From a virus (Duplodnaviria; Caudoviricetes): a DNA stretch of 64,000 bases. A program made the position numbers and the translations under genes. Positions 9,001-59,672 of this stretch are shown here, in pieces. The notes under the pieces were generated by a model, which did not search any database, had not been told where the DNA came from, and was given only the letters and a program-made list of their open reading frames with translations. Position 1 is the stretch's first letter. The number at the start of each line of letters is the position of its first letter. The DNA is taken from the IMG/VR virus record IMGVR_UViG_3300043480_000021, positions 5,422-69,421 of that record; one strand, written 5' to 3'.

Positions 9001-12000
9001 TTGTGCTGGGTGCCTTTAAGCTTTTCACGGAGCAGCTTCCGCGCGGCCTCGGCTTTGTCCTCGGTGACGAAGGTGTTTTTCTTGCCGTATTCGGTTTTCT
9101 GTTTTTTCGCCTTCTTTTCCTGCTCGAAGTAGGCCCGCTGGTCGATCGCAAGCCCGCCCATGCCGGAGAGATCGAGATCGCCGTCCTCGGCCTGCGCGTC
9201 TTTCGCCGCCTTGGCCATTTCCTGACGACCTTCTTCCGTGCGGAAAGGGCTGATCGGCTCGTCGACCGTTTTCGCTTCCTCTACGAGGCGGTCGATCTCG
9301 TTCCGGAGCGTGAGACCGAAAGACTCGGCAGCCATCTCGTCGTAAAACGTCTGGGCGCGTTCGCTGAGAGCGCTACGCGGGGCAACTGTCCACCAGGCAT
9401 AAATGCCATTCCAGAGGTCCTCAAGCAGCGTAATGGCTTCTTCGCGATCGATCCCGGCAAGCTTGTCTGCCTGATTTACGGCCTGCTTGAGTGCGAGGCG
9501 CATAGCTCCGGATTGTGCGAACTGGTCCATGCCCGACGCGCGGCGGCCGCCCCAATCGTCGACAAGAGAAGCCTCGCGGGATTCCGGGAAGAGCTCCGGC
9601 AACGTTTTTGCGGTTTTTACGTCTTCGTCGACGAGGTCAGAGAAAAGAGCGGGCGCGGCCTCGGCTTCCTTCGCGGGCTCCCCGATCCTTCCTGGCGCTG
9701 CGGCCTCTTTCTGGGGTTCAGCTACATTTTCGCCGAAGTCGAAGCTGATATCTTCTTCAGCATCGGACTCGTTTTCTTCGTCGGAAAAGTCGAAAGAGAG
9801 GTCTACTCCGTCGCTTTCGGGTTCGGTTTCGTCGAGGATTTCTTCGCTATCGGGGTTGAAGATGCTTTCCGGGCCATCTTTGCGGCCAGCATGTGGCCGG
9901 CCATCGAGAGCATCGGCACTGCTTTCTTCAGGCGGTCCAGCCTCGCCCCGCCGGGCGACGTGGGTAAGGAGTTCATTGATGATCGATCGGGTTTCTTCTT
10001 CACTGAGTCCATAATTATATCCTAGTTTGACCAAATCATCCTGTTTTTCTTCCGAGATCTCGCCGTCGAGCTCCAGGTCCTCAAAGATCGGCCAGGCTTT
10101 GTCGTCGGTCAGGAAAAGCTCTATCTCGTATGTTTTCTTAAATTCGGCGCGGTTCATACCCGCGAGAATGGTCTCCAATTGCTCTTGCTGAATTTCCTCG
10201 CGCTGGTGATCATCGACGAGCTCCGCGGCGTCCTTTTCGCCGCCTTCTTCAGTAACGAAGTACCGGCGGATGCCGCGGGCGTCCTCTTCGATCAGGTCGA
10301 GGAATACGTTCGGATCGCGGTCCTGAACATCCGGCCACAGGTCGCGCAGGTATCCCATTTCCCAAGCATGCTCGGCCATGTGCTCGGCGTTGTACCTCGA
10401 GTTTCGATTGACGAGGCCGATCTTTCCGAGCTCCTTTTGCGAAATGCGCTCGAGCTCTCCGCCCAGGCGTCCGCGTTTAGCGTCGTCCGTGTCCGGACGG
10501 ATACCACCGGAGGATTGAACGAACTGCCAAAGTGATTTTGCCTTTCCGGGCCTTCCACTCGGCCGCGCGGGCTTACGAGCAGCAATACGCTCGTTATTGG
10601 CGTTGAAGGCTTCACTCTCGAAACTGCCGGCGATCTCGCCGGAGACGTTGCCAGCGGGCGCATGCGTGATTTTGACGCGGGTTTTTCCGGTCACCTCATA
10701 CTCGTAGCCTTTCCAGCGCAGCCGGGCCCGATTTTGCTTCTTCCGGAGGATGCTGGCGGTCGACCGCGAAACGTCGACGCTAACAGCACTCTCTAAAACC
10801 GAGGGTTTTACCTTTTTCGGCGATTTACGGAAGTATTCCCGCTTCGAGATCTTGTCTCTGACGATACGGTCGAGATCGCCGGGCTGAACATTCTCGAGAT
10901 CCTGCGCGTGATAGCCGAGTTTGCGGAGGATCCGGGTCCGCAAAGACTTGAGAGGTTTGGCGGCGTGAGTTTTTTCGCGCAGGTCGACCTCGGCGATCCG
11001 TTCGCCTTTTACCGGCAGCTCGAAGCGTTCGAAGACATTCCGCGCGCCGGTATCCGTTTGGACGGGCTTTTGAGAAGTAACCAGGTTGGAGACGAATTTC
11101 TCCTTCGGCGATTCCGGCATCGAGGGTTTCGCTTCCTGGATCCAGCGCATCGTGTCCTCAGCCGTCTTTTCCTCTTCACGCTTCTTGACGGCGTCGGAGA
11201 CCGGCATAACGACCTGCGAGACGGGCTCATCCGGAAAATGAGCTGCATCCTGTGCTTTCTGCTCCTCGATATTCGCGGGATCCGTAATGACGCTCGACGA
11301 AAGCTCCCGGCCGGTCTGATCCTCGGTTCGGACGACGTCTCCGGTTGCTGTGTCGCCGGTATGATCCTCAACCTTTCCGAGCATGTCGGAATAGCCCTTT
11401 TCCTGTACGTGCGCGGCGATCTCCTCGGGAGAGTTAAGACCGAGCTGCTCCTTTGCCTTTTCGGTGTTTACAAAGAGGACGCCCTCGTCCACAGGGACCG
11501 GTATAAGTTTTTCCGCGCCGGGCCCGTTTATCAGCTCGCCCTGTCCGGATTCGGTAAGGAGGACGGCGGACCGCGGCGATTCGTCGATCAGAGTGCTTAC
11601 GATCTGCTTTTGGATAGTAAAGTCCGATTCCGGCGACGTGGGCGCGGGTCTGGCCTGTTCCGGCGCCTGGACCGGAGCTTCGGCGGAATTGTCGGCGCCG
11701 AGGATATCGTCGACAAGACTAACGCCGGAGGGATGCGCTTCAACAGGCGCGGATTCCGCGGCCGGCGCGGGTGTTTCTGGGGAGAGGGGAATAAGAATAT
11801 CCGGGCGGTCCTCGTCCTCGATCGGCTTCGCCTCGAGGATCTCCTCGTCGCGCGGGATAACAACGTCTCCGACCTTTTCTTTTGAGGGAACACTGATACC
11901 GGATTTTTCGGCAATATCTTTCGAGATAACGACCTGCCTCTGCTGGAGCGCTGCGAGCTCGCGCCGGAGCTTCCAGATCTGTTTAAGAACGCCGCGGTTA

Positions 12001-15000
12001 GCGGAGAGTCCTTTTTTCGGGTCTGCCTTATCTTGGAGCGCGGAGATCTCGGCCTGGACCTCCTCGATGCCGTTCCGGCTGTTCTCGTAAGACTCGATAA
12101 GCTCGCGGTTCTTGTCGGTGACCTTAACCTTCTTACCGAAAGCATAGATCTCGCCTTCGCCGAAATGCTCGATGATCACGCCGTTCGCTTGCTCTTCCTC
12201 GATCGCGCGTTTGATCCTGCGCCGGTTACGGACGGTATTGAGAACCGTAACCGCCACGGACACGAGAGGCGCGGATATGCCGGCGACGAGCATGTTGTCG
12301 GCGAGGTCCTTGTCGGCCTTTCGGTCAGGATCGTAAACGAGATTTGCGACGATGTTCCCGGAAAACGTCTGCGTGCCTTCCTGGACGAGCTCTTCGGGCG
12401 CTTCCTTTCTCGCCTCCCTCCATGCTTCCCGGAAGAGTTTCCGCCACACGGTACCGCCGGCGCCTTTATTGAGACGGACCAGCGCTTCGCCGATACCCGC
12501 GATCTCGGTAATACCGAGCGGAGCGGTCAAGAGACCGGCCAGTTGTGCCTTATCTTCCGACGCGCCGAACTCGATCGCCTCTTTGTACGTATCGCCGCCC
12601 ATCTGCAGGGAAGACAGGAGGGCGATCATCAGCTTTGGGGATTTCGAGAAGCCGCCCGGCATCATTCCGAGCGAGGACCCCACGCCCTGCGGAAGTTTGC
12701 CGGCGAGAAACTCCCGCTCCATGTCTTCGTCGGTCGGCAGCCATTCGTTTAAGAATTGCTCGCCCCTTTCGGCGATCCCGAATGTCGCATAGTCCGAAAC
12801 CTTTTTGCGCGGGTTATCGGCGCCGTAAAGGACGTCGTCGATCGATTTCGAAGCCAAGGCTATGCCTCGATAGGTCGACGCGATCGCGACGGACAGAGCG
12901 GACTTGACGGTACCGAAAATGATGCCCTGGGCGCTGCCCTTGATGTAATCGCCCCAGCTCATTTGAGCGACCCGGCTTTTTCGGGCCTCCTCGGCCAGCT
13001 CGAGCTCGCGCATTTTGCGGTTGCGGTTGGTGATCGAACCGTAGAGCTCAAGTTCGCGCCGCATGTAGTTGGCCGTATTCTGAGCGGCCGCGGCGTCGGT
13101 TGGTCGCAGATCGAGCTCCTGAAAGCCCGTCGCGCGGGAGGCCTGCACCTTTTGATTTCCGCCCTGGATCTGTGCCCGGCGCTCCGATTGGAGCTTCCGG
13201 TACGCTTCGGCTTCCTTTTCGGCGACTGCGCGGGGAAGCCAGCCAACCTTGGCCTTTGCCTGCAGGGAGGCTAGATACGCATCGCCCTCTTGTTTCTGAA
13301 ATTCCTCGAGATATCGGCCGAAGTCTTTTCGCGAAACGCCGCCTTTGACCTTGGCCATCTCGAGCTCGTCGTAGCGCCGATCGGCGAGGGCCGAAGGATC
13401 GAAGTCGTTTTCCTTGAACTGCGCGAGATCGCGCGGCGTGAATTCCTGGCCCGAGGCGATAATGCCGAGAGCGTAATCCTCGAGCATTTTTCGGCGTTTG
13501 GATGAAAAAGCCTGAAGATCCTTAAGATCGCCGCGGGTGATATCGAACGGCTCTGTAGCTTTGTCGCCTTTGGCAAAATAATCCTCATGGCTGTAATTCT
13601 TGCCCGTATCGAGTTTGCGAAAACCAGTAGCTTGGTAAAAAGCCCGGATATCCGACTCGGGCACCTCCCGGAAGAGCTCCGGATCGCCCGCAACAGCGCC
13701 TTTCAGCGTAATCGCCACTTGATGGCTTAAAAGCAATTTAGCCGCTTCGTCGGTCGTTGAATTCTTTAAACGCTCCGGGATTAGTTCGATTCTCGTCTCA
13801 TGGGTGGCCAGCGATGCCAGAGACTCCGGACGAATATCCTTGGTTACAGGGTTTGCGATATACGTCTCGCCCTGATCATCCATCACGCGAATCTCGCCTT
13901 GCTTCAACCCGGCCGTATCCGGGGTGTGGGTAAGAACGCGCCCGTCCGCCGTTTTGATCTGATCGGTCCGCTCGAGGTCCGTTGCTTGTTTTTGCACCTC
14001 ATCTGAGGGGGAATTTCGAGCAACGCGCGGCACGCCGGCGCCCGGGCCGCGCCGTTTTGCCTGTTTCGGCCGGTTGGCGATCGCTACGTCGAGCTCGGCG
14101 AAGAGAGCATTATCGTCGGGTGTGAAAACACCCGTTTGTTTCCCATCCTTTACCGCCTGGTGCCCGTCGATGAATTTGCGGCGCAGCTCCTCCGAATCAG
14201 TGAATCCGTACGTCTTCAGATAACTCTGGTAGGAGGCTTTTAACGCGGGATCGTCCGGAAGCACAGATTTCGGCTTCGTCTTTCCAAGTACCCACGCCGG
14301 CAACTCGCGACGTATCTCAAACTTTTCGCCGTTCGGTTTAGCGAGATACGTTTTGCCGGTCTTCGAGTTTTTTAGCCTTATAAATCCTGGCGGCACATCC
14401 TTATCGTCGGTCTGCACTACCTCGCTGCCGTCTTTCTCCATGAAGCGCAGCTTTGGGTTTTCTTCGGCAATCTTTGTACCATCTACGATAAAATTAACGG
14501 GATTGCCGGCGACCTCTCGCGTGTACCTAGTACCCGCCTTGACGCCCTTTTGCCCGTCCGGGCCATCGGCGCGGATATACTCGGCCTTATTACCGTCCTG
14601 GATGCGCTTTGGCGGGCCGGTAGGCACAAGACGGACCTTTTCGCCTTCGATCTGACCTTCAAGAAGATCGCCGTCGGCATCCTTGAAGTAATGCTTGCCG
14701 CCCGCGGTACCGACATACTCGTGATCACCGAGCTTGCCGGATCGTTCGAAGTCGAACGTAGGGACCTTGTTTCGCTCGAAAGTGGTAGGGATCGGCGCGC
14801 TGAAAGGGGTACTTTCGGGGGAATTAGGAGTTTGATTTTTTTGATTGGTGAGGGCTGTGCCCGGTAGGGCTACGGAAGCAGTCCGCCCGTTTCCGGACTG
14901 CGGACCGCCGGGCGTAATTTGGCGTGACGCGCCGATGGTTTTCTTTTGCGCGTTCAACTGCACGAGCTGTTCCGTGATCTTCCGGATGGCGTCGGAGATA

Positions 15001-15866
15001 CGGCGCCGCTCAACTCGGTCCTTTGTCTTTTTCAGCTGAATCTGGAGATCGTCGCGCTGTTTTGTGAGATTTACGATCGGGTCGACCTCCGGAGGATCCT
15101 CCGGGGCGACATTTGCGCCGGGCATGGTCTCCGGGATCCTCTCAGGTACCAGGATCTCGGGAACCTCACCCGCGGGCTGTCCCGGTTCCGGCTGGCCGCC
15201 TAGCACATCGCCTACAAGGTCGCTGCCGGTCGCGGGTCCATCTTGCGGACGAGCTCCGGCCATAACATCCTGAATCAGGTCGTTGGCCGACGCGATTCCG
15301 AACGGTATGCCCGAAGGCATCGGTCGCGCGGGCGGGCGGGCGAACCCGCCAGTTTTCTCGACGTATGACCGGTACGTTTCTTTAAGATCCGGCCGGTAAG
15401 AATAAAGCCTGATATTTGGGACCTCGCCGGTCCGTCGATAGTAACCGATGATGTTGTTTCTCGCCCCAACATAGCGCAGCCGCCGCACGACGGGATCAAC
15501 AGGATCGCCGGCGACAAACTCACGCAGTCCCATTTGCCAGTTATCCTGCTCGTTGAACGGGTCCAGGCCTTCGGCTTCATAAGGTTTCGCCGTGCCGGGC
15601 ATTATTTGAGAGCCGCCGATCGCCCGGTCGCCGTTTGCGGTTGGTATGCCGCGCTTGACGATATTTGTGCCCGGCCAATAATGAGCGCGTCCGCTTTCGA
15701 TTTTTATGAGGTTGTAATAATCCTCAACATCATCGTCGGAGATATTGACCTTCCGACGACGCGCCTCCTGGGCCGCCTGGTAGAGCTTCGCCCTCACACC
15801 GTTATCGCTTTTTGCTGGTGCTTTCTTGCTTTTGGTGCCGAGTAGATCGTCGATTATGTCGGACAT
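1..15866 (-). CDS. Giant DarB-like / large polyvalent virion-ejected protein, at least 5288 aa, 3'-truncated by the window edge (lytic transglycosylase + SF2 helicase + N6-adenine MTase + further domains)
   Basis: ATG at 15866 (MSDIIDDLLGTKSKK), 8 nt after the upstream stop. My manual translation stays in one frame to position 3 (...IRVMNRIAKEKGLDLNKIW) with no stop seen; frame re-checked at 10040, 3797 and 59. The missing stop explains its absence from the ORF track. Confidence 0.9.
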   Translation of the reverse strand, partial: MSDIIDDLLGTKSKKAPAKSDNGVRAKLYQAAQEARRRKVNISDDDVEDYYNLIKIESGRAHYWPGTNIVKRGIPTANGDRAIGGSQIMPGTAKPYEAEGLDPFNEQDNWQMGLREFVAGDPVDPVVRRLRYVGARNNIIGYYRRTGEVPNIRLYSYRPDLKETYRSYVEKTGGFARPPARPMPSGIPFGIASANDLIQDVMAGARPQDGPATGSDLVGDVLGGQPEPGQPAGEVPEILVPERIPETMPGANVAPEDPPEVDPIVNLTKQRDDLQIQLKKTKDRVERRRISDAIRKITEQLVQLNAQKKTIGASRQITPGGPQSGNGRTASVALPGTALTNQKNQTPNSPESTPFSAPIPTTFERNKVPTFDFERSGKLGDHEYVGTAGGKHYFKDADGDLLEGQIEGEKVRLVPTGPPKRIQDGNKAEYIRADGPDGQKGVKAGTRYTREVAGNPVNFIVDGTKIAEENPKLRFMEKDGSEVVQTDDKDVPPGFIRLKNSKTGKTYLAKPNGEKFEIRRELPAWVLGKTKPKSVLPDDPALKASYQSYLKTYGFTDSEELRRKFIDGHQAVKDGKQTGVFTPDDNALFAELDVAIANRPKQAKRRGPGAGVPRVARNSPSDEVQKQATDLERTDQIKTADGRVLTHTPDTAGLKQGEIRVMDDQGETYIANPVTKDIRPESLASLATHETRIELIPERLKNSTTDEAAKLLLSHQVAITLKGAVAGDPELFREVPESDIRAFYQATGFRKLDTGKNYSHEDYFAKGDKATEPFDITRGDLKDLQAFSSKRRKMLEDYALGIIASGQEFTPRDLAQFKENDFDPSALADRRYDELEMAKVKGGVSRKDFGRYLEEFQKQEGDAYLASLQAKAKVGWLPRAVAEKEAEAYRKLQSERRAQIQGGNQKVQASRATGFQELDLRPTDAAAAQNTANYMRRELELYGSITNRNRKMRELELAEEARKSRVAQMSWGDYIKGSAQGIIFGTVKSALSVAIASTYRGIALASKSIDDVLYGADNPRKKVSDYATFGIAERGEQFLNEWLPTDEDMEREFLAGKLPQGVGSSLGMMPGGFSKSPKLMIALLSSLQMGGDTYKEAIEFGASEDKAQLAGLLTAPLGITEIAGIGEALVRLNKGAGGTVWRKLFREAWREARKEAPEELVQEGTQTFSGNIVANLVYDPDRKADKDLADNMLVAGISAPLVSVAVTVLNTVRNRRRIKRAIEEEQANGVIIEHFGEGEIYAFGKKVKVTDKNRELIESYENSRNGIEEVQAEISALQDKADPKKGLSANRGVLKQIWKLRRELAALQQRQVVISKDIAEKSGISVPSKEKVGDVVIPRDEEILEAKPIEDEDRPDILIPLSPETPAPAAESAPVEAHPSGVSLVDDILGADNSAEAPVQAPEQARPAPTSPESDFTIQKQIVSTLIDESPRSAVLLTESGQGELINGPGAEKLIPVPVDEGVLFVNTEKAKEQLGLNSPEEIAAHVQEKGYSDMLGKVEDHTGDTATGDVVRTEDQTGRELSSSVITDPANIEEQKAQDAAHFPDEPVSQVVMPVSDAVKKREEEKTAEDTMRWIQEAKPSMPESPKEKFVSNLVTSQKPVQTDTGARNVFERFELPVKGERIAEVDLREKTHAAKPLKSLRTRILRKLGYHAQDLENVQPGDLDRIVRDKISKREYFRKSPKKVKPSVLESAVSVDVSRSTASILRKKQNRARLRWKGYEYEVTGKTRVKITHAPAGNVSGEIAGSFESEAFNANNERIAARKPARPSGRPGKAKSLWQFVQSSGGIRPDTDDAKRGRLGGELERISQKELGKIGLVNRNSRYNAEHMAEHAWEMGYLRDLWPDVQDRDPNVFLDLIEEDARGIRRYFVTEEGGEKDAAELVDDHQREEIQQEQLETILAGMNRAEFKKTYEIELFLTDDKAWPIFEDLELDGEISEEKQDDLVKLGYNYGLSEEETRSIINELLTHVARRGEAGPPEESSADALDGRPHAGRKDGPESIFNPDSEEILDETEPESDGVDLSFDFSDEENESDAEEDISFDFGENVAEPQKEAAAPGRIGEPAKEAEAAPALFSDLVDEDVKTAKTLPELFPESREASLVDDWGGRRASGMDQFAQSGAMRLALKQAVNQADKLAGIDREEAITLLEDLWNGIYAWWTVAPRSALSERAQTFYDEMAAESFGLTLRNEIDRLVEEAKTVDEPISPFRTEEGRQEMAKAAKDAQAEDGDLDLSGMGGLAIDQRAYFEQEKKAKKQKTEYGKKNTFVTEDKAEAARKLLREKLKGTQHNAGLDPDVAKAGIELAAYHIEAGARLFADYAKAMIEDLGAGVIPYLKSWYLAVQFDPETSHFTAGMNDIAAIDKALDQFSAETDKVVQATAEKPEIATEDAPATVDEIPAAPADQATQTLPPAGDTLFDMGGLDQEGLFAVGGPAAIGETPDNDAGKREQIARLKQNATDTERERNMNVFGPELGRLLIERKANPSTPHASRAAGIVLARRGDIEAKGRPALDLVGDVVAAIEEIGEAEMRGMPFEEFILQGGLFGATEFTSAQREVYDEIGAGRFEGFFNKRLDQLDAAKEYGDVASSTEDLARDSSERPGDEFRQELPNAESGRDGDSARTSSDRAGEQGSGSEGSDIVPGAGAAPGGTRGDIEVRESPPGDQASTSGDFDDGRGGPDSDSGLLFEYRPSDAVRAAAQRNSELGEKRRLQEEAESHELVLRDLDNIRATLPFLLPEQHEDVLFAENRLEEGEGVLFTNGTGTGKTYTGLGIAKRLHRQGKKSILIIAPNDKILEDWRTSAENVLINAKRLESTVDHGRDGTVLTTYANFRANNTLIERVWDAIIFDESHYLSQNKDGDETGAVQMLRAVALHDRGQWNYHAVKNAAELEQLEAAREEKEKASRQYRRTYSEADKGKYDEANAKYKRLLDALQPLQDAAYAEYDRRRETEARPKVVFLSATPFAYEKNIEYAEGYLFSYGPDVDTGGYNSGSSKDRFFMQHFGYRMRYNKLTKPDADVNTELMEQQFNSMLQKAGALRGRRLNIDVDYSRKFILAESAIGMKIDEGFQYIWDQSQNKALETIEQRRFWNLHEYARKRFNYLAKRFTLEAINARSVIPIVKAQLEAGRKVVVFHDYNKNEAIHPFDFGPDFNGVIRLDGEIYDVGDVYAKFTAARPDLVGLDLTTLVAPNEVFPAEFGDQVKMFNGTVPKMKRREAVADFNDDAGSTKILLSQSDAGREGISLHDTTGQYQRVLINLGLPVRPIAAIQTEGRIYRVGTKTNAIQLYITTGTNFEQYAFGTQISQRASTAENLALGEEARALRQAFIDGYQEAVTDYAPSENEGLGGKEGDRALAAAMTDYQKAIGFYFGKGKKTSRNKSAEGKDYYATPEPIGLKMVEWADQRLAEHTLEPSAGHGAIARWFRPDNRKTVIEPSQELAAQLSLVTDGRLERDIFENHHTGANKYHTIVMNPPFGSGGKTAVDHVAKAAKHLHNQGRIVALIPDGPAADKQLEKFLKSEDAKDLYKIGDIHLPGVAFKRAATQVRTHIIILEKQFFPEHVKQLPSGGGLDLSHFDDIKELFDYLEHVEVEPRIVTSEAGPVSITPSPAAAAMEGAEGAPAQTAGVGSDMFDAAEFDHTTNGNRIFVAKPKELLDKATFNTLRYTMAPRYGGYYSKFNKGGAVAGFHFSTAAERDAFIAEASMPTGMKAAILPGPAPTFYSQVEKVITDKMPKRAPADQVRGILKPEYGIKKEELDWLGIDDFLASKDAFSKDEVLDFVRSNNVQVEEVIKGGTFRTGDIFIKEWNSESTERNGRKGKLHYFQADITRPHPVYEEHGQKIRVGSIFEDGKIFEATSAQGVKQFHTFDEAKRYLNDGAEVRFMDEGLGNPFEASPTKYSDRVLPGGENYRELLLTLPTSESALTSDQLTRYQKLDAMDTGDVSIAQRQEWEMLANRKNLNSANDRIFQSKHFDEPNILAHIRFNDRTDADGKKTLFIEEIQSDWHQAGREQGYSPKGPQKQYFLRKPDGDIGQDFASKEEGEQFFDKNPHAGSLDSFINNETGVLDAPFKKSWHELAFKRALRYAAENGYGAVAWTTGETQNDRYDLSTQVKSLSYTYSDGQYGIKGVSLRGNPFDIGVYDEAGLAAAVGKELAEKIKTDREGGLLTKEYTGDNLKLEGSGMKGFYDKIIPNFVDKYTRKWDAKVTPAEINTNQYGVVQSGTGDFYIVGNDSKPIGEKSAARPYKIEENAEAAAKRMNTQKAHAVEITPEMQISVMQGQPLFATRLPGQKSYDEIVGASLGDLIAPMRVELDGPKSYRIKLNAEAAEFLRRVYQEIRFQQTKTQAFEVPFYALFDILKDTKSNREFTAKVIRFINDQAKEAQRLGYTTNEVLNIKNVADAIEIAAENGAGGFIFYVDDRFLPEEEFHRAGYMIFNAAISEDRFADNLNHHTAVEKYKQIYGAYLDQFPASVRDAVAWDETAAILARGGMEELGVSEDEAVEYLAGFFESIAKRLEEKGINVEQALKNYDAVREQHIREQIRRTTEEYRSRREKAGRPGRDSEQGGQKPQSPPGEDPGSPPGGAGGERFNLGPPVLKGPGIASLPETLRAHGYESDRKTYDIRSHDDVRRAVAEMADYANVAEIIYQKLLSGKDLSSVDTGLAIELVQRLQREARADLKAGKKDFYEAKKGQAAQIADILDEKLREAGRFIEAVKLMEPFSPDFIVETAKRRMQRFDPDAEMTPDLEAELLKMAEELEESKNAVDELTRKYGRLDRRFKKYRELDRVERQKRRRARRAKNRISRAKESIIKKLAEKESDIIDKFRDRFNPPTDMKAANMTAMKAADVTTAQNVGLTDEELNELAEFGALELARGMIKLEPEMFTLRLQEIFGAGIRPFADQIHARSYAKYKELLREENKKNALERLKSANPDLNDAEIDQLYTERKEKQKEARKIANAHLKQARAADPEATGKKSRAARRGSTSAGTSGTDTDPALTPLQQAIIDEAEKQDIDPILRETSLMLANPKTRDYNGIARVLNDRHGLTKEEADRMIGKGLAFVRDVKRVRAEKVQEARAEKEAELTDEARAEIDAAHARHRQAENELRKKLDALSRKPVGYMPRLRRIWKGLLISSYKTAFNNAISGGFTIGVRTATDTIDLFLRKAATKGKIKLGEDGLDPKLKFRDILALQAWRALRSRRMAEGILDRYAYQYEMMFGRYNADIEADVKHDQVDGNKALAKVDKGADAAFRGAEWFVDKVNIFNMVQEFHVRSIEFIRVMNRIAKEKGLDLNKIW
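5180..5740 (-). other. N6-adenine DNA methyltransferase domain of the giant protein
   Basis: DYYATPEPIG, SAM-binding LEPSAGHG (about 5625-5650) and catalytic IVMNPPF (about 5455-5475), in gamma-class order. Confidence 0.85.
5880..7700 (-). other. SF2 helicase domain (Strawberry-notch-like) of the giant protein
   Basis: Walker A FTNGTGTGKT (about 7575-7600), Walker B IIFDESH (about 7320-7340), motif III LSATP (about 6985-7000), and C-terminal AGREGISLH...QTEGRIYR (about 6045-6170). Confidence 0.85.
7757..8119 (-). CDS. Nested (overprinted, +1 frame) 120-aa protein inside the giant ORF
   Basis: SD AAGGAG at 8127-8132, 7 nt before ATG 8119; TAG at 7757. The product MLQVAPKIWHEIAANGLATNFGRNFLTLKADEMAIAHERAATELENKG... 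has globular helical composition. The giant-ORF frame over the same bases is a G/S/D/R-rich disordered linker. Confidence 0.7.
   Translation of the reverse strand: MLQVAPKIWHEIAANGLATNFGRNFLTLKADEMAIAHERAATELENKGVDPKVAISYLELAPLLAERVAISRYANHHPAIRQVLPEILTTDEAVQIATRDSFLNIDQATQLGQLLNATLN
15330..15866 (-). other. N-terminal lytic transglycosylase (SLT/lysozyme-like) domain of the giant protein
   Basis: Catalytic-Glu motif LIKIESG (about 15693-15710), followed by GGSQIMPGTA and LDPFNEQDNWQMGLREF, matching the SLT E-S, GxxQ and helix-N pattern. Boundaries approximate. Confidence 0.75.
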
Positions 15867-15874
15867 GATAAAAG

Positions 15875-17017
15875 CTACTGGGTAGGAATGTACCCCCACG
15901 TTTGCATCGCATAGGCCTCGAGGGCTGTCCGCGTCTCTTCCGGGGTCGGCATCCGGAAGTTGGTCCGTGAGAAATTAGCTTCCCATTGCGAGCGATACGT
16001 CGACATTTGCTGCCGGGCCTGCTGGTACTGAGTCGCGGTGATCTGTTTCGTCTGCCGGTTATTTTGCTGCTGCTGGTTAAACTGCGTCGACCACTGCGAA
16101 AGAACGAGCGGCGCGAGCTGCTTCGGAGCTATCTTCAGCGGTACGCCGCCGATCTTCGCGTCGATCGGCACTTCCGACGCGTCGACGGGCATACCGGGCG
16201 AGGGTTCCCACTCTTTGGTGTCCGGGTTCTGGGTGAAGAACGCGCCGGCCTGCTCCTTCGTTTCGCGCCTTCTCGCATCGAAGTCCGAGAGCTCGATATC
16301 GGCATCGGCGAGCTGCTGGTCAAAATCCGCGTTCGCGCCCTTCTTGTAAAAATTCTGCTTCGCGATCTGGCCGAGGAGCTGCTGCCGGAGCGTAAGTTTG
16401 CGTTTCTCCTCGTCGCCTTTAAGCTTTTCTTCATCCCGCGCCTTTCGATCGGCGTCGTCGCGGGTCATATTTTCCATTTGCGACTGCTTGTAGGCGCTTT
16501 GGAAATACTGGTCCTCTTCCTTATCGAGCTGGCCGAGGTCCTTGCGGTTCGTTTCCTGCTTACGAAGCCGCGCATCTTCCTCGTCCCACTTGTCGTTGAT
16601 CATGCCGCCGGCGAACGCCCCGGGCGCTCTCGACAGACGCCCGAAAAACTCTTCCCAGTTTTTGACGACGCCCAACTGCGGGCTGTAGGCGTCCGCCAAG
16701 GCGCGGAGACCGGCTTCGGCGCCGCTCCTTAAGCGCGAGTCTTCGGATTTTTCCGTTTTATGAGAAAGCTGCTCCCTTTCTTCCTCGAGCTTCCTGCGAC
16801 GATCGGCATAAGGCCCGACATAGGGCACGGACGCGCCTTTCGCGATCGCTTCGGGCGAAGGGTTGGCATTAAAGTGCTGATCGCCGAGATCCGCCGGCTG
16901 TTGTGGACGAAAAACGGTAGGGACCAGCGTGTTACCGCCGCGGCCGCTAAGCGTGGCAAAATCTTCCTCGGCATCGCGCCGGCGTACGGTCGGTACTCGT
17001 GATTGCTGATTTCTCAT
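15875..17017 (-). CDS. Putative internal virion/ejection protein (380 aa)
   Basis: Q/E/K-rich helical protein directly upstream of the giant ejection gene. Function inferred from position only. Confidence 0.5.
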   Translation of the reverse strand: MRNQQSRVPTVRRRDAEEDFATLSGRGGNTLVPTVFRPQQPADLGDQHFNANPSPEAIAKGASVPYVGPYADRRRKLEEEREQLSHKTEKSEDSRLRSGAEAGLRALADAYSPQLGVVKNWEEFFGRLSRAPGAFAGGMINDKWDEEDARLRKQETNRKDLGQLDKEEDQYFQSAYKQSQMENMTRDDADRKARDEEKLKGDEEKRKLTLRQQLLGQIAKQNFYKKGANADFDQQLADADIELSDFDARRRETKEQAGAFFTQNPDTKEWEPSPGMPVDASEVPIDAKIGGVPLKIAPKQLAPLVLSQWSTQFNQQQQNNRQTKQITATQYQQARQQMSTYRSQWEANFSRTNFRMPTPEETRTALEAYAMQTWGYIPTQ

Positions 17018-29842: not shown

Positions 29843-30679
29843 CTATTCTGCCGTTTCAGGGGGTGCGGAGGCTTCCGCCGTCTCCGGCGCGGCCTCAGCT
29901 GCCTTTTCCGCTTTTTTCTTTGCGGCGTCGCGATACTTCTCGTATTGATCCGAGGCTATGCCGAGCTCTCTCGCTTCCTCGACCGACAGGGTCGGCACGA
30001 AGTTGTGCAGATCCGTCACGTCGCATTGAGCGCTGAGAGGCATCAGGTTTCCGAAGCCGTTATATTTCAACTTCAGGTCCTCGGCGTGGCGTCCAACGTT
30101 ACTCGACGACCAGCTGGCCAGGAGACCGGCGAAAGCATGCTCCTCGCTGTCAAACTGGATAATGGTGTCGCTGCCGAGGGTGATGGTTACCCCGCTCGAG
30201 GTCGGAATGACGGTACCGGCGCGCAGCCGGCGAAATCCTTCCGGAACGACCATCTCGCCGTGGAGCTGTTTCTCGAGCTCGATCGTTTCCAGCTTCCAGG
30301 CTTCCTTCTGGTCTTCGATCGGAAGATCACTCGTCCCATGTTCCGCGTTTGCAGTTATCAGGTCGTCGATCTTGCCGTCGAGGCCGGGTTCATCCGTCTC
30401 CTCGGGCGGGAATTTCTCATTGAGAGCTTTGCTTAATGTGTCCTCGGTTTCCTCGTCGATCTGCTCGTCCGATTTCGCCGGCGCGGGTGCTTCCGGTGCT
30501 TCCGGTGCTTCCGGTGCTTCCGGTGCTTCCGGTGCTTCCGGTGCTTCCGGTGCTTCCGGTGCTTCCGGTGCTTCCGGTGCTGCCTCTCGTTCAACGGATT
30601 CCGCTGCTTCCTTTTTCACATCCTCGACGGGTTTTTCGCCGTCGCCTGTTTTCGATTTGGCCTTTTTCCTAACGGTCAT
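29843..30679 (-). CDS. Acidic hypothetical protein with (PEA)10 repeat
   Basis: 278 aa, SD GGAG upstream, E/A/P-rich termini around a short globular core. Confidence 0.65.
   Translation of the reverse strand: MTVRKKAKSKTGDGEKPVEDVKKEAAESVEREAAPEAPEAPEAPEAPEAPEAPEAPEAPEAPEAPAPAKSDEQIDEETEDTLSKALNEKFPPEETDEPGLDGKIDDLITANAEHGTSDLPIEDQKEAWKLETIELEKQLHGEMVVPEGFRRLRAGTVIPTSSGVTITLGSDTIIQFDSEEHAFAGLLASWSSSNVGRHAEDLKLKYNGFGNLMPLSAQCDVTDLHNFVPTLSVEEARELGIASDQYEKYRDAAKKKAEKAAEAAPETAEASAPPETAE
30486..30580. repeat. Perfect 9-bp tandem repeat (GGTGCTTCC)x10.5
   Basis: Counted directly: 10 identical units plus 5 nt, in frame, encoding PEA repeats. Confidence 0.97.
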
Positions 30680-53633: not shown

Positions 53634-54665
53634 TCATACCTGCGCGGTTTGCTTCGCCTCCTCGTGCTTACATTTCGACTTGCGTGGGACCTTGTTGACG
53701 ACGATCGTTATCCAGCCGAAGCCGTCCCTGCAGGCGTCGCAATAAACCGGCGCTTTGCCGTTTCCGTTTGCGGCCGGTCCCGCGGCTTTTTCCTTTTCCA
53801 TCCAAGCTTTTATTTCCTTCAGGATAGTTGCGATCGTGACAGGCCCTTTCCGCCAGCTGGTTTGTGACGCGTGAGTAGTAGCGAATTTGTAAAATGCCTG
53901 TACCTCGCTGAGCAGTATCCCCTCGTCGAGCAGCCATTCGATCTGCTTTATGAAAACGGTATCGGTATCAAGTGGACAGCTGCCCGGACCGTGCGATTTT
54001 TCCCACCAGGTCCTGAAGTTTTTGGCGTAGCCTCTGAAGGTAGCCGAAGGCTCCTCCCACACACCTTTTTTGCTCTTGTGTGTGTTTAAATCTTCTGGAG
54101 AAGAGTTCTTAATTCTTAAGGAAGGATTTGGATTATTCTCCAAATGGTCGGTCGATTTTTGCTGGCTACCATTTGGATTATTTTCCAAATGGTCTTTGGA
54201 TTTTTCTCCAGATGCATTCGGATTATTCTCCAAATGGTCGACCACTCCCGCCGTCAAAAATTCCTCGTATTTTTTGTTCAGAAATTCGTAGTCGATCCGG
54301 GAATATTTCGTCATGTCGCCGGTACCTTTGTTCGGCTGTTTAACGATCAAATAGCCCTCGTTTTCGAGCCACTGAAGATGCTTACTGACGGTATCGCCGG
54401 AAACCTTGCCGGTCTTCTTATTGACCGTCTTCCAAAAAGTGAAATAATCCTCGACCCACTCCCGCGCGGAGTTGTAGATATACTTCTCGCCCTCGATGAT
54501 CACCCCGCCGCGTTTCTGCGACCAAAGGTAATGGATCTGCTGAAGGACGATCGCGCGGTGAAGGCCGATCAAGCACGCCAGCGAGGGAAGCACCTGGAGA
54601 GGCGGCTCGTTGATAAGTAGTTTTGAAAATTCGTTTATCACTATTTCCAGTAGAAAGATGAGCAA
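53634..54665 (-). CDS. Phage replication initiator (replisome organizer)
   Basis: N-terminal SKLLINEPPLQVLPSLACLIGLHRAIVLQQIHY winged-helix motif typical of phage initiators; internal iteron-encoded DHLENNPN x3; C-terminal CDAC...CKH. The start may be slightly downstream. Confidence 0.8.
   Translation of the reverse strand: MLIFLLEIVINEFSKLLINEPPLQVLPSLACLIGLHRAIVLQQIHYLWSQKRGGVIIEGEKYIYNSAREWVEDYFTFWKTVNKKTGKVSGDTVSKHLQWLENEGYLIVKQPNKGTGDMTKYSRIDYEFLNKKYEEFLTAGVVDHLENNPNASGEKSKDHLENNPNGSQQKSTDHLENNPNPSLRIKNSSPEDLNTHKSKKGVWEEPSATFRGYAKNFRTWWEKSHGPGSCPLDTDTVFIKQIEWLLDEGILLSEVQAFYKFATTHASQTSWRKGPVTIATILKEIKAWMEKEKAAGPAANGNGKAPVYCDACRDGFGWITIVVNKVPRKSKCKHEEAKQTAQV
54130..54239. repeat. Iteron-like direct repeats (putative replication origin)
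   Basis: GGATTATT(C/T)TCCAAATGGTC at 54130, 54175 and 54220 (45-bp spacing), a partial copy at 54198, and an AT-rich stretch at about 54080-54125. Confidence 0.7.
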
Positions 54666-54679
54666 AAAGAAAGAACCAC

Positions 54680-54727
54680 AAATCGGGGAATCGCGTAGCC
54701 CGTAGAGGCGAAGAGATTCCCCGATTT
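54680..54727 (-). terminator. Hairpin with 13-bp perfect stem after the (XG)n ORF
   Basis: AAATCGGGGAATC / GATTCCCCGATTT inverted repeat, followed by GTGGTTCTTTCTTTTT on the minus strand. Confidence 0.6.
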
Positions 54728-54734
54728 GACATGT

Positions 54735-55031
54735 TTAGCCGTAGCCGTCGCCGGAGCCGGAGCCGTAGCCGGAGCCGGAGCCGTAGCCGTAGCCGTAGCC
54801 GTAGCCGGAGCCGGAGCCGTAGCCGTCGCCGTAGCCGTAGCCGTAGCCGGAGCCGTAGCCGGAGCCGGAGCCGTCGCCGTAGCCGGAGCCGGAGCCGTAG
54901 CCGTAGCCGGAGCCGTAGCCGTAGCCGGAGCCGGAGCCGTAGCCGTAGCCGTAGCCGGAGCCGTAGCCGTCGCCGGAGCCGGAGCCGTAGCCGTAGCCGT
55001 AGCCGGAGCCGGAGTTAATTACTGCTCCCAT
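54735..55031 (-). CDS. Gly-alternating repeat protein MGAVIN-(S/Y/D-G)46
   Basis: ATG lies inside the last codons of the DUF6948-like gene (GTATGGGAGCAGTAA); 98 aa. Confidence 0.6.
   Translation of the reverse strand: MGAVINSGSGYGYGYGSGSGDGYGSGYGYGYGSGSGYGYGSGYGYGSGSGYGDGSGSGYGSGYGYGYGDGYGSGSGYGYGYGYGSGSGYGSGSGDGYG
54738..55013. repeat. Array of 46 hexamers (TCCGGC / TACGGC / GACGGC on minus strand)
   Basis: 276 bp built from only three hexamer variants; counted directly. Confidence 0.95.
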
Positions 55032-55306
55032 ACGGGCACCTCTTCGATCGACTTTTTACCTTCCTCGGTGACCTCGAGTAATTCGATCACTTCGGTAAGC
55101 ACGACTTTGGGTACGGCAACGGGAAATTTACATTGGCTCGGCGACGACGTTCCTTTTACCGCTAACTGCGACAAAGAAGCAGCTCCCGCCCAGTACCATA
55201 GCCGCCGGGCATCTTTGAGCTCTGCCTCTTTTCCATCACGTTTGACCAATATTCCGGCAAATACTCCTGCGGAATAGGTCCGTGCGATTACATAAGTTCC
55301 TTCCAT
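55019..55306 (-). CDS. DUF6948-like phage protein (95 aa)
   Basis: YVIARTYSAGVFAG...ELKDARRLWYWAGAASLSQLA...KFPVAV...EVIE is the family pattern as I recall it; SD GGAG. Confidence 0.75.
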   Translation of the reverse strand: MEGTYVIARTYSAGVFAGILVKRDGKEAELKDARRLWYWAGAASLSQLAVKGTSSPSQCKFPVAVPKVVLTEVIELLEVTEEGKKSIEEVPVWEQ

Positions 55307-55362
55307 CTTTGTTCTCCTTGTGTTGTTTTACCTTCCCTTGCTCGTTTAGAAAATTGTGTTAT

Positions 55363-56727
55363 TTACTCCCCGAAAAAGTTTTCAAACCGCGAAAACTCCT
55401 TCAAGAAAGCGACCTTTACGGTGCCGATAGGACCGTTTCGCTGCTTGGCGAGGATGATCTCGGCAATGCCGGCGTTTTCGTCGTCCGGTTTGTAGTAATC
55501 CTCGCGATATATAAAAGCGACCACGTCGGCGTCCGCCTCGATCTGCCCGGACTCGCGGAGGTCGGACATCATAGGACGGGGCGGGTTCCGGGCTTCCGGC
55601 GCGCGGGAGAGCTGCGAGAGCGCTACCACAGGCACGTTCAGCTCCTTGGCCAGGGCCTTTAGTTCGCGCGAGATAAGAGCGACTTCCTGCTGGCGGGAAT
55701 CGGTCCTCCTGCCGCCGCTCATCAGCTGCAGGTAATCGACGACAATAAGGTCTAAAGATTTTTGCTCGGCCTTTAGCCTTCGCGCCTTGGACCGCATTTC
55801 AAAAACGGATATACCGGGGGTGTCGTCGATGAAGATATTGGATTCAGTAATGACGCCGTCGATAGCGAACGAGATCCTGCCCCATTCCTGCTGTGTGAGA
55901 TAACCGGTCCGATACCGGTTGCTGTCGACCTTCGCCTCGGCGCTGGTCATTTTTATTGCAAGCTGCTCTTTGGACATTTCAAGTGAGAAAACGGCGACGA
56001 CAGCGTTTTCGTCCCTTGCGGCATTTGAGGCGAAGTTAAGGACCAAAGTCGTCTTGCCCATTGAGGGTCTCCCGGCGACGATGATCAGATCGGACTTTTG
56101 TAGTCCGCCGGTTTTCTCGTCGAGATCCCGGAGTCCGGTAGCAAGGCCGAGCAGGGCGTGAGTTTCCCGCTTTGAAAACTCCTCGGCTTTTGCTTTCATC
56201 TCTCGAGCGACAACGCCGAGCTTTGAAAATCCTTTTTTTAGCTGAAAATCCGATAAGGCGAATATCTGCCGTTCGGCGCGCTCGAGCGTGTCCTCGACCT
56301 CTTCTTCCTCGTTCAGCGTTTCGCTAACGATATCGTTGCAAACGCGTACCAGGTCCCGGGCGAGCTTTTTTTTCTTGACGATCCCTATATAGAGGGAGAG
56401 GTCGCTCATGTGCGGCAGACCGTACGTAAGGTTGGTTATTGTCGCAACGCCTCCGATGCTTTCGAGTAAGGATTCCTTTTTGAGCTCCTCACCGATCAGG
56501 ACCGGCTCGAGCGGTTCGCCCCGGCCGAAAACGCCTAACATTGCCGCGAAGATCTTCCGGTGCCGCGGAGAATAAAAATCGTCGACCTTGAGGAGCTCGG
56601 CAGCCTGAAGCATTAAAAGGTTATCCAGGAGTATGCAGCCGAGGACGATCCGCTCGGCTTCTTCGCTGGAGGGCAAAGGCCGCTCGAGGAACTGTTCGCG
56701 CTTTGATTCGAGGAATACGGAAGCCAT
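55363..56727 (-). CDS. dnaB: Replicative DNA helicase
   Basis: LPSSEEAERIVLG, GLATGLRDLDEKTGGLQKSDLIIVAGRPSMGKT, FSLEMS, VVDYLQLM, SQLSRAPE...DLRESGQIEADAD. Confidence 0.97.
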   Translation of the reverse strand: MASVFLESKREQFLERPLPSSEEAERIVLGCILLDNLLMLQAAELLKVDDFYSPRHRKIFAAMLGVFGRGEPLEPVLIGEELKKESLLESIGGVATITNLTYGLPHMSDLSLYIGIVKKKKLARDLVRVCNDIVSETLNEEEEVEDTLERAERQIFALSDFQLKKGFSKLGVVAREMKAKAEEFSKRETHALLGLATGLRDLDEKTGGLQKSDLIIVAGRPSMGKTTLVLNFASNAARDENAVVAVFSLEMSKEQLAIKMTSAEAKVDSNRYRTGYLTQQEWGRISFAIDGVITESNIFIDDTPGISVFEMRSKARRLKAEQKSLDLIVVDYLQLMSGGRRTDSRQQEVALISRELKALAKELNVPVVALSQLSRAPEARNPPRPMMSDLRESGQIEADADVVAFIYREDYYKPDDENAGIAEIILAKQRNGPIGTVKVAFLKEFSRFENFFGE

Positions 56728-57478: not shown

Positions 57479-57768
57479 AAGGTGATAATCCTCCTCTCCT
57501 GCAGGTCCGCGATCTTGGTAGTAACGGCGATATAGGACTCTTCCGCGAGCTTGTTAAAGCAGAAGTCGCACATGCCCGGCTCGGCCCAGGCGCACGCCAT
57601 TTTCGGGTGTTCAGGATGAAAACAGGGTGTTGTATCCGTGCAGCCACAAAAGGCACATTTGACCTCGTCGCAACCGGCGCAAAAGGGCCCGGCCGCGTCT
57701 GCGGCTTCCACGGTCGACGTGAAGCCGCAGTTTCGACACTGGACGATTCGATTAGGGTCGCCGATCAT
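57475..57768 (-). CDS. Hypothetical Cys-rich protein (97 aa)
   Basis: CRNC...CAGC...CAFCGCTDTTPC...CAW...CDFC. Confidence 0.6.
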   Translation of the reverse strand: MIGDPNRIVQCRNCGFTSTVEAADAAGPFCAGCDEVKCAFCGCTDTTPCFHPEHPKMACAWAEPGMCDFCFNKLAEESYIAVTTKIADLQERRIITL

Positions 57769-59672
57769 GCGGCCACCTTTTCCTCGACCGGTTCCGCGGC
57801 GTATTCTTCGACGATTTCATCAAAGTCCTTGCCTTCCTGGAGCCCGGTTTCGATCGCCTCCATTTCGGTTTTCGCCTTTTTTGCTTTACGGGCTTTTTTG
57901 GGTTTTTGAACCACGTCGTCGACGCAAGCGTAGGTTTCCGCGTATAGTCGCGGGATGGCCGCTTTCTTGCCCTCTCTTACTGCTTCCAGATATTTCTCAA
58001 ATTGAGGGCGGTTCTTTTTGTTGGACAGTTCTAGGCGCTCCTCGGCGTCCATCAGGCGGTAGTTAAACCCATAAATCGCGGCGAGCTCCATGATGGCTTT
58101 TTGCGATCTATAATTGCCGTGATACATCTCGCCGTCGTGAGCATGGCTGAACAGGAAGAGAAGGCGCTTCTGCTGATATTCACTAAAGGTGGCTTCGATC
58201 CAATCGGCTGGCCGGAGTTTGCTTGGGGACCATGTATTCCAAAAGTCGTAACTATTGGTCAAAAGCTTAACCTTTTCGCCAACCATTTTTTGGGCGATCG
58301 GGCTAACGACTTGGCGGCGGTCATTGTCTTCAGCGCGGAGCCATAGAGTGCCGACCAGTGCAGGAAGTATGCCCCGATGGAGGCCGGCCTCGAACGCGAA
58401 GCTATTCGCAAAAGTCTCGGAGGCTCCTTCCAGGATTACCCTCCGGATCTTTTCGCGTACTTTGACGTCGATTATCTCTTCGCGCCGCTCACGCTTCTTT
58501 TTAAGCTCTGCTTGGGACGACGAGCTCTTATCCTGCGATACTGACGGAAAATGTTTTTTGCAGGTGTGATCGCGGCAGACTAGAGCCGTGGTCCCGCGCT
58601 TATCGCCGCGGACGTAGATAGTCTGCTCAGCTTTTTCACAGAAGTCCTTGTCGGACGTGAGTACCTTGAATTTATCGTGATAACCGATTATCGGCTTCTC
58701 GTACTCGCTGCTGTCCCAGTTCCCGTAATAATTCGTATCGATCACTGGCGCCTTATAGGTTTTATCTTTCTTATCCTTCTGCCCGTTCTTGGTAAATTCC
58801 GAACGAGTGATCTGGATAAATTTCACCGTCTTTTTGTCGAAGCAGGCACTATTGAGGCATTTATCGTCTTTTGCCTCCGGTGCGTCGAAAAGGGTTGGCA
58901 TCGCTCCGCTGCGGGCTGGACAGTCGACACACTTAAGCTTGTCTTTTCGGAGGCGATCATCGTCGAGCGCGAACGGAGCTCGAGAAAGAAGTGCGTGTAT
59001 GTTTCGCTCGATGCTGCCTAAGAAATTCCGGAAGACCTTGACCGATCTATCCCCGTTTGAATGTTCAAAAAGAAGCTCCTTGATTATCTTCGCCTGAGTG
59101 TCGGGATCGTATTTGACGAGCTCCAGCGCGTGGGTTAAAGGTAGCTCCCTTTCATCCAGAAGTTTTTGGGCCGGGACCGTCAGATCGTTCAGCTTTAAGC
59201 GGGTGTGGATAAACTTGACCGGCTTATGTAGCCGAAGCGCAAGATCATCGAGGGAAAGACCGACTTTCTCCTGCAGGAACTTATATCCCCGCGCCTCGTC
59301 CATGGGCTCCAGGTCGTCGCGGTGAAGATTCTCGTCGATCTGCGCCGACAGTGCTTCTTCGTCGGTAAAATTGCTCACCAAAACGGGCACCATGGAGAGG
59401 CCAGCCAGCCGAGCAGCTCGCGAACGACGTTCCCCGGCAACAATTTCGAATTTCTCACCTTTCGGTCGAACGATAAGAGGCTCAAGGATCCCCTTTGATT
59501 TGATCGAATCTGCCAGCTCGTTTAGCGGCTCTTCGTGAAAGACCGTGCGCGGATTGGTTGCGCTCGGGAAAACATCGTCGATCGGAACTTCCATATACGT
59601 CGGATTTCCGGTTGCGTTGCTCTGTTCCATAAATATGCTTTTCTCCTTATTTTTTCTCTGTGTCGTCTTCAT
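57765..59672 (-). CDS. parB: ParB/Spo0J-family protein with long C-terminal region
   Basis: PSATNPRTVF...LADSIKSKGILEPLIVRP...FEIVAGERRSRAA...DENLHRDDLEPMDEA, then HTH and CVDCPARSG...CLNSACF. May start at 59630. Confidence 0.85.
   Translation of the reverse strand: MKTTQRKNKEKSIFMEQSNATGNPTYMEVPIDDVFPSATNPRTVFHEEPLNELADSIKSKGILEPLIVRPKGEKFEIVAGERRSRAARLAGLSMVPVLVSNFTDEEALSAQIDENLHRDDLEPMDEARGYKFLQEKVGLSLDDLALRLHKPVKFIHTRLKLNDLTVPAQKLLDERELPLTHALELVKYDPDTQAKIIKELLFEHSNGDRSVKVFRNFLGSIERNIHALLSRAPFALDDDRLRKDKLKCVDCPARSGAMPTLFDAPEAKDDKCLNSACFDKKTVKFIQITRSEFTKNGQKDKKDKTYKAPVIDTNYYGNWDSSEYEKPIIGYHDKFKVLTSDKDFCEKAEQTIYVRGDKRGTTALVCRDHTCKKHFPSVSQDKSSSSQAELKKKRERREEIIDVKVREKIRRVILEGASETFANSFAFEAGLHRGILPALVGTLWLRAEDNDRRQVVSPIAQKMVGEKVKLLTNSYDFWNTWSPSKLRPADWIEATFSEYQQKRLLFLFSHAHDGEMYHGNYRSQKAIMELAAIYGFNYRLMDAEERLELSNKKNRPQFEKYLEAVREGKKAAIPRLYAETYACVDDVVQKPKKARKAKKAKTEMEAIETGLQEGKDFDEIVEEYAAEPVEEKVAA

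Follow-up and report, generated by a model that had tools for sequence, protein, structure and literature searches.

Several Sm and Sm-like proteins carry Gly-rich tails. They include human SmD1, whose tail is a strict Gly-X dipeptide chain of Gly-Arg repeats, SmD3, SmB and LSm4, and the Hfq of Acinetobacter, in which the C-terminal domain is Gly-rich or acidic. A small beta-barrel DNA-binding core with a flexible tail that competes with single-stranded DNA (ssDNA) is known from E. coli SSB, which has a Gly-rich linker and an acidic tip, and from T7 gp2.5. The crystalline blocks of the silk fibroin heavy chain have the form (GAGAGS/GAGAGY)n, and [G/S]Y[G/S] is the motif type of FUS-like low-complexity domains. 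Here we analysed a 64,000-nucleotide stretch of a Caudoviricetes virus (positions 5,422 to 69,421 of IMG/VR record IMGVR_UViG_3300043480_000021; hereafter the window), in which the gene for a DUF6948 protein overlaps a gene for a chain of alternating Gly and X residues, X being Tyr, Ser or Asp (the Gly-X protein). The two genes very probably form a self-contained, translationally coupled cassette that combines a conserved, predicted Sm-like barrel with a hypervariable, acidic, Tyr/Ser-rich Gly-X chain.

The nearest counterparts are other phage pairs. Those of MW202898.1 (Caudoviricetes sp.) and Ralstonia phage NK-7 (PP919442.1) belong to the same Pfam family, PF22253, and have the same Gly-Ser/Tyr/Asp make-up. 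The homologous open reading frame (ORF) of MW202898.1 shares the 13-nt overlap found in the window and is annotated as a coding sequence for a 'hypothetical protein', and that of NK-7 is annotated as a 'fibroin heavy chain-like protein'. Nothing essential distinguishes the window pair from the DUF6948 and Gly-X pairs of phages, although Tyr is unusually frequent (50% of X) and Asp unusually scarce (9%) in its Gly-X copy.

Compared with the better-known proteins, the likeness is partial in each case. The pair resembles the Sm, LSm and Hfq proteins in having a small, bent barrel of five strands (predicted) accompanied by a Gly-rich low-complexity chain. However, the chain is a separate polypeptide here, and its X residues are Tyr, Ser and acidic Asp, not basic Arg. 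DUF6948 also differs from Sm/LSm proteins in lacking an N-terminal helix and in having two additional helices, one placed between strands 3 and 4 and one C-terminal. With SSB and gp2.5 the pair shares a small barrel, a flexible Gly-rich/acidic chain and a setting among replication genes, but the fold of those proteins is the oligonucleotide/oligosaccharide-binding fold and not Sm-like, their tail is covalent and short, and no homology was detected. Strict alternation of Gly with small or aromatic residues, derived from short DNA repeats, recalls silk fibroin; the window chain, in contrast, has no Ala, is high in Tyr and Asp, is shorter than 100 residues and is a cytoplasmic phage product, and Ala and Ser do not dominate its X positions. 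The dense Gly/Ser-Tyr-Gly/Ser motifs beside a putative nucleic-acid-binding fold are reminiscent of FUS-type domains, from which the chain differs by the absence of Gln, the strict two-residue period and the presence of Asp. A small Sm-like barrel with a Gly-rich low-complexity chain is already known; what is new here is that the two parts have separate genes and that the chain is a strict dipeptide repeat. We found no paper naming DUF6948 or its pairing with a Gly-X gene, in a search that left most subscription journals outside; this agrees with the starting point of our study, an annotation made from the DNA alone (the original prediction), which stated that no function is established.

Pairing and translation of the Gly-X gene

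Relatives were collected by scanning IMG/VR with the DUF6948 protein. The 70 loci obtained were 44-75% identical, and all 70 have an ORF of the Gly-X or Gly-rich type directly behind DUF6948. The same Gly-X ORF was present in prophages of metagenome-assembled genomes (MAGs) of the GTDB, assigned to Acidobacteriota, Proteobacteria, Bacillota, Bacteroidota, Actinobacteria and others. The original prediction had described a two-gene module whose second ATG is formed by the Val-Trp codons GTA TGG at the end of the upstream gene. The pairing was kept in all relatives examined, and the ATG was confirmed at this place in the window (Table 1).

The embedded start is widely conserved. Of 71 arrays, 63 have a start codon 10 nt ahead of the DUF6948 stop (56 ATG, 6 GTG and 1 TTG), and the remaining eight have another start nearby in every case. 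A lineage with CTG at this position has an ATG just past the stop, one exception uses a GTGA overlap, and one array has an ATG at -13. In NK-7 and in the L050-L055 lineage, the Gly-X start lies past the DUF6948 stop, in the other frame. A Shine-Dalgarno-like tetramer or longer match stands at the same place in 55 of 71 arrays. In the window, the two genes overlap by 13 nt and the Gly-X gene is in the -1 frame.

The encoded protein consists of the head MGAVINS and 46 X-Gly dipeptides, with Gly at 46 of 46 alternate positions. X is Tyr at 23 positions, Ser at 19 and Asp at 4, and there is neither Ala nor a basic residue among them; the 98-residue protein contains 23 [G/S]-Y-[G/S] motifs. Codon counts confirmed the predicted repeat ORF of GGC (46 codons) alternating with TAC (23), TCC (19) or GAC (4), and no other codon occurs in the array. 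The three unit types, GGCTAC, GGCTCC and GGCGAC, are one base apart. Tandem Repeats Finder reported a period of 6 and 46.0 copies with a score of 398, and autocorrelation over the window array revealed no higher-order periodicity in the order of X. In the other genes of the phage, 56% of the Gly codons are GGC and 23% of the Ser codons are TCC. Codon bias therefore cannot explain the use of one codon per residue, which reflects amplification of units. A search for phage tRNAs able to serve the GGC/TAC demand found none. The only Pfam hit of the repeat protein was TrAA12, which was below threshold and attributable to low complexity.

Whether the array is coding cannot be shown from the window alone, because two of its six frames lack stops and three have one stop each; the relatives settle the question. 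For Gly, 49 arrays use mainly GGC, 8 GGT, 5 GGG and 2 GGA, and Ser is encoded by TCC, TCT, AGC or AGT, that is, by both codon families. Two arrays, those of L045 and L066, are non-repetitive; they have no stop in the Gly-X frame and 2-11 stops in each of the other five frames. The Gly-X frame is thus kept at the protein level among the relatives, so that the finding named in the original prediction as its refutation, a frame not conserved in relatives, did not occur. Judged by this comparison, the Gly-X repeat is a translated gene.

The DUF6948 protein and long forms of its partner

The DUF6948 protein matched PF22253 over positions 2-85 of the 85 in the model, with 102.6 bits (gathering cut-off 27; E 1.3e-29), and the match was also recovered on the full genome record. 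At 90% identity there are at least 4,907 DUF6948-related clusters, and the carriers are phages of Proteobacteria, Bacillota, Bacteroidota, Acidobacteriota, Actinobacteria and others. Besides Ralstonia phage NK-7, cultured carriers include phages of Pectobacterium, Iodobacter and Vibrio. Mean column identity was 62% in an alignment of 39 sequences from otherwise unrelated phages, with R9, G14, G18, G25, R34, R35, W37, Y38, W39, G41, A42, A43, G52, P56, C59, E75 and W93 invariant. A search of the ESM Atlas returned DUF6948 clusters only, and PHROGs, NCBIfam and PADLOC gave no match for either DUF6948 or the Gly-X protein.

The AlphaFold2 model of DUF6948 (predicted local distance difference test, pLDDT, 96.9) shows three strands, which a short helix separates from two more, and then a C-terminal helix. 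In a Foldseek search of the PDB, the best matches were Sm/LSm chains (E 1.7e-3). VIA-align likewise placed Sm/LSm chains in its top 18 rows, and most of the next rows were Sm-like domains. Its best row superposed 62 residues with a root-mean-square deviation of 2.0 Å and a Z of 7.9, a middling value, as unrelated models typically reach 7-8 according to the tool. The upstream protein had been proposed to be an Sm/SH3-like beta protein, and an Sm-like fold is borne out by the model and its top matches. DUF6948 lacks the Sm1/Sm2 sequence motifs. We call it Sm-like in fold only and do not assign it to the Sm family, because the Z is middling and there is no sequence-level link. Residues 1-70, which make up the barrel, are basic, with a charge of +5 here and +3.2 on family average, and the C-terminal part is acidic.

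In distant relatives, mostly gut Bacillota phages, the Gly-X protein is longer. It begins with an N-terminal helix (MESVIxxFL-like), continues with the Gly-X stretch and ends in a C-terminal domain of ~150 residues carrying the motifs PCFVVK, FAHG and DWHHxLTGSCxxGR, the last of which is invariant. The window copy has neither the helix nor the domain, and tblastn did not detect the domain in the window's genome. More than 2,000 homologues of the domain exist, and their Gly-X stretch ranges from none to dozens of units. The domain matched no Pfam, PHROG or NCBIfam family. Its model (pLDDT 84.7) gave no convincing match, either in Foldseek (best E 0.29) or in VIA-align (best Z 6.3, on an EF-hand-like helical part), and its profile retrieved only Gly-rich linkers from the PDB sequences. 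The long forms are represented by loci L062:3276-4007, L059, L063 and L067-L070 and by proteins P0001-P0120, and in the examined loci the gene is always directly behind DUF6948. In P0061, a truncated DUF6948 is fused to the C-terminal domain, which looks like a deletion or an assembly collapse. In L028:3276-5414, a Gly-X chain of about 74 units runs in frame into a protein with ParB_N and HTH_ParB domains (712 residues); the ParB-like gene of the window is separate (Table 1). The Gly-X stretch can thus act as a flexible linker, and it stands alone in the window.

Array variation, closing hairpin and genomic setting

Across the family, X is Ser in 39%, Tyr in 30.5% and Asp in 22% of cases. Other residues contribute ~1% or less each (Ala 1.2%), and Lys and Arg are near-absent. 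Among the complete stand-alone forms, the number of units varies from 5 to about 70. Arrays diverge even where the DUF6948 DNA is 100% identical: in six such loci, they are separated by 1-20 substitutions and a 24-nt indel. In another, near-identical pair, a 66-nt indel distinguishes the arrays. Both indels are multiples of 6, so that the length variation by hexamer steps put forward in the original prediction is observed between near-identical phages. At the DNA level, the array is minisatellite-like: its units multiply, change order, and come and go in steps of 6 nt. What selection maintains is the frame, the start, Gly at every second position and the Ser/Tyr/Asp make-up.

The arrays also affect the assemblies in which they are found. 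Sixteen of the 70 IMG/VR contigs stop inside the array, as do those of both closest relatives; the contigs of L073, L075, L078, L081, L083, L088 and L089 stop within or just before it. The closest relative of all, with a 97% identical DUF6948 and shared DnaB synteny, has a different head and array start, and its contig stops 30 nt into the repeat. Hexamer arrays (276 bp here) systematically break short-read assemblies, and as a result the module is under-counted and array lengths are unreliable. The 46 units of the present record could themselves be an assembly estimate, and because the relatives' contigs end inside the array, we treat the number as such.

A strong hairpin with a 13-bp stem had been predicted to close the cassette. 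The hairpin is present (-31.8 kcal/mol, z -4.4, with 0 of 200 shuffles folding as well) and is followed by a U-rich run, but its stem has 14 bp. A consensus terminator scan omitted it, since its 22-nt loop exceeds the 8-nt limit of the scan. Among 41 non-redundant loci, the hairpin behind the array was stronger than all 20 background segments in 11 (Wilcoxon p 0.0075), and about a quarter to a third of the relatives have a clearly strong one. The closing hairpin is accordingly a frequent and not a defining part of the module. In the window, it probably serves to end transcription or to stabilise the 3' end of the transcript.

The record is a 69.4-kb provirus, estimated to be 87% complete, with DUF6948 in one copy. 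All genes in this part of the window are on the minus strand. The cassette is flanked by the gene of a DnaB-type helicase and by that of a DnaD-like helicase loader/initiator, which matches phrog_6493 (E 1.8e-23); farther along are a ParB-like gene, the large terminase and a PAPS-reductase-like gene. The best match to the DUF6948 protein in the scanned GTDB genomes came from a Pyrinomonadaceae MAG (67% identity), which fits an Acidobacteriota host for the provirus. In the closest relative (L088:2397-2960), an extra gene of 187 codons, family unknown, stands between DnaB and DUF6948, whereas the same interval in the window is only a 56-nt gap.

We then compared the flanks of the relatives. DUF6948 itself was present in 71 of 71 loci, but no flanking gene cluster was common to more than 11 of the 71. 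Pfam matches in the flanking genes included RecT, YqaJ, RusA, AAA_24, DUF2800, helicases, ParB, KTSC and similar families. The cassette is autonomous and usually lodged in early replication/recombination regions. The possibility that the Gly-X protein is the precursor of a ribosomally synthesised and post-translationally modified peptide, with a recognition partner, was rejected: no modifying enzyme is conserved nearby, as the limit of 11 of 71 loci on any shared cluster shows, and the Pfam tally of the flanks contains replication/recombination functions only.

Table 1. Positions in the window of the cassette features and of other elements mentioned in the text.
Feature	Positions	Strand	Remarks
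Shine-Dalgarno-like AAGGAG	55314..55319	-	7 nt upstream of the DUF6948 ATG; read from sequence
DUF6948 gene	55019..55306	-	95 aa; C-terminal end V-P-V-W-E-Q-stop; Pfam PF22253
Shine-Dalgarno-like GAGG within the DUF6948 coding sequence	55039..55042	-	7 nt upstream of the Gly-X ATG
ATG of the Gly-X gene	55029..55031	-	A of Val GTA and TG of Trp TGG; 10 nt before the DUF6948 stop
Gly-X repeat gene	54735..55031	-	98 aa; TAA stop directly after the array
Hexanucleotide array, 46 units (GGCTAC, GGCTCC, GGCGAC)	54738..55013	-	Tandem Repeats Finder
Hairpin, 14-bp stem, 22-nt loop	54679..54728	-	starts 6 nt past the Gly-X stop; computed fold
U-rich run GUGGUUCUUUCUUUUUGCUC on the RNA	54660..54678	-	directly after the hairpin; read from sequence
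DnaB-type helicase gene	55363..56727	-	flanks the cassette
DnaD-like helicase loader/initiator gene	53634..54665	-	flanks the cassette
Palindromic iterons	54126..54250		inside the DnaD-like gene; candidate replication origin
ParB-like gene	57765..59672		separate from the Gly-X gene
Long open frame	3..15899	-	runs past the left window edge
ORF of 278 codons	29843..30679	-	contains the 9-nt repeat
9-nt repeat GGTGCTTCC	30486..30581		perfect, 10.7 copies

Three further features of the window were recorded. Inside the DnaD-like initiator gene, there are 3-4 direct repeats of 22-45 nt, each with the palindrome ACCATTTGGA-N6-TCCAAATGGT, which encode a recurring DHLENNPN segment at the protein level. 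These palindromic iterons are a candidate replication origin, as in lambda O. The perfect 9-nt repeat listed in Table 1 would give a Gly/Ser/Thr tripeptide repeat. Finally, the minus strand contains a single open frame of more than 5,299 codons.

Possible functions of the pair

A mechanism for the pair can be outlined tentatively, as a possibility to which we give limited credence: an Sm-like nucleic-acid-binding core would act together with a separate acidic, Tyr-rich, disordered partner. DUF6948 would oligomerise as other Sm-fold proteins do, and its basic barrel and invariant RRLWYW segment would bind nucleic acid in single-stranded form, either RNA or ssDNA arising in replication/recombination. 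Made along with it, the Gly-X chain would serve as the detached low-complexity arm of DUF6948, flexible, acidic and Tyr-rich. It may compete with nucleic acid for the DUF6948 surface or may link several cores, and would parallel, as a separate polypeptide, the Gly-rich/acidic tails of Sm D1/D3, LSm4, Hfq and SSB. The hairpin would end or stabilise the transcript. Points in favour of this mechanism are the basic barrel, the invariance of R34, R35, W37, Y38 and W39, and the make-up of X, which is mainly Ser, Tyr and Asp with Lys and Arg near-absent. The replication/recombination neighbours were also counted for it; they are DnaB and the DnaD-like loader here, and RecT, YqaJ, RusA, helicases and ParB elsewhere.

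Several observations weigh against this mechanism. Besides the middling Z, DUF6948 has no LSM or Hfq match in Pfam, nor any other Pfam family at E <= 0.1, and its profile found nothing below E 0.86 among the PDB sequences and no solved relative. The most conserved segment spans the last part of strand 3 plus the loop and helix behind it, a place not known as the RNA-binding site of Sm proteins. The genomic context is not specific for nucleic-acid handling either, since early/replication regions also gather anti-defence and accessory genes. In addition, the chain may be basically a linker whose effector is missing here, given that the long forms carry a helix and a C-terminal domain.

An alternative is that the Gly-X chain is a decoy or sponge, a multivalent acidic/aromatic bait for a host factor or defence protein early in infection, with DUF6948 as its chaperone or adaptor; the bait would either imitate nucleic acid or be a promiscuous protein binder. 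We consider this unlikely. A chain that is acidic, Tyr-rich and without basic residues would suit such a role: minimalist antibody binding loops consist mainly of Tyr, Ser, Gly and Asp, and the acidic, aromatic-tipped tails of T7 gp2.5 and SSB mimic ssDNA. Array length and X order evolve very fast beside an unchanged partner, as in an arms race or if bulk composition alone matters, and the cassette moves as a unit among unrelated phage backbones and sits in early regions. On the other hand, the window array, with Asp at 4 of 46 X positions (9%), is a poor polyanion. DUF6948 is ~62% identical across phages of different host phyla, which suits a universal ligand over a host-specific defence target. 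The lack of a PADLOC match also counts against a decoy, if weakly, as that library holds defence and not counter-defence proteins.

The original prediction proposed, as a hypothesis, that the beta protein binds or templates an amyloid-, silk- or condensate-like Gly-Tyr-Ser polymer, possibly a decoy or a replication-compartment scaffold. As a self-assembling material, the chain would organise replication in the form of silk-like beta sheets or of a FUS-like condensate or gel, with DUF6948 as nucleator or cap. The strict Gly-Ser/Tyr alternation, which resembles that of crystalline silk fibroin blocks, the name given to the NK-7 homologue, the 23 [G/S]-Y-[G/S] motifs in 98 residues and the position of the cassette between the helicase and helicase-loader genes are consistent with this idea. 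However, many relatives are Asp-rich, with Asp at 22% of X overall and about 40% in some arrays, and this charge opposes beta-sheet stacking. A range of 5 to about 70 units in the stand-alone forms is hard to square with a defined material, and in the long forms the chain joins two folded parts like a spacer. We find a material role quite doubtful.

It is highly improbable that programmed -1 frameshifting fuses DUF6948 to the Gly-X chain and thereby produces an Sm-like protein with a covalent Gly-rich tail. Such covalent tails are usual in Sm, LSm and Hfq proteins, and the Gly-X frame is -1 relative to DUF6948 in most loci. Yet the frame relation varies, as L050-L055 and NK-7 use the other frame and start past the stop, and the start codon is kept or replaced in every case. 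No slippery heptamer of the type X-XXY-YYZ was seen in the overlaps of the window or the inspected relatives, although no systematic scan was made. Moreover, of 22 longer DUF6948 proteins, the 10 that were inspected have N-terminal extensions only.

That the hexamer array is a DNA-level element (an origin, protein-binding iterons or a recombination hotspot) with an incidental open frame has next to no credibility and is largely refuted by the comparison of relatives: the weak frame test in the window alone, the location between replication genes and the use of a single codon for each residue, which a purely DNA-level repeat would also give, are outweighed by relatives that keep the amino-acid pattern and not the DNA (four Gly codons, both Ser families), that keep start and stop codons in place and whose degenerate arrays are open in the Gly-X frame only, and the array travels with DUF6948 and not with the replication genes, a more conventional origin candidate, the palindromic iterons, lying 500 bp away.

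Returning to the Sm-like core with a detached arm, a broader form of the proposal can be stated, although we hold it to be improbable. DUF6948 and the Gly-X chain may be a phage-wide two-part system that has so far gone unrecognised, in which a constant Sm-like ring is combined with a Gly-Tyr/Ser/Asp polymer that has its own gene and changes rapidly in length. The polymer would serve as a nucleic-acid mimic or multivalent glue, and would form or gate a condensate round phage DNA/RNA during replication or recombination, or would capture a universal host factor. If true, this would be a bacterial-virus counterpart of the eukaryotic granule biology of Sm/LSm proteins and low-complexity domains, with a tail that evolves as a minisatellite.

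The findings have meaning for annotation as well as for phage biology. The arrays could be taken for non-coding repeats by gene callers or readers, and annotators should expect them. The Gly-X gene product is among the purest natural dipeptide-repeat proteins and offers a test case for low-complexity, Tyr-rich chains in bacteria. Given its spread and conservation, the module should have a basic part to play in infection.

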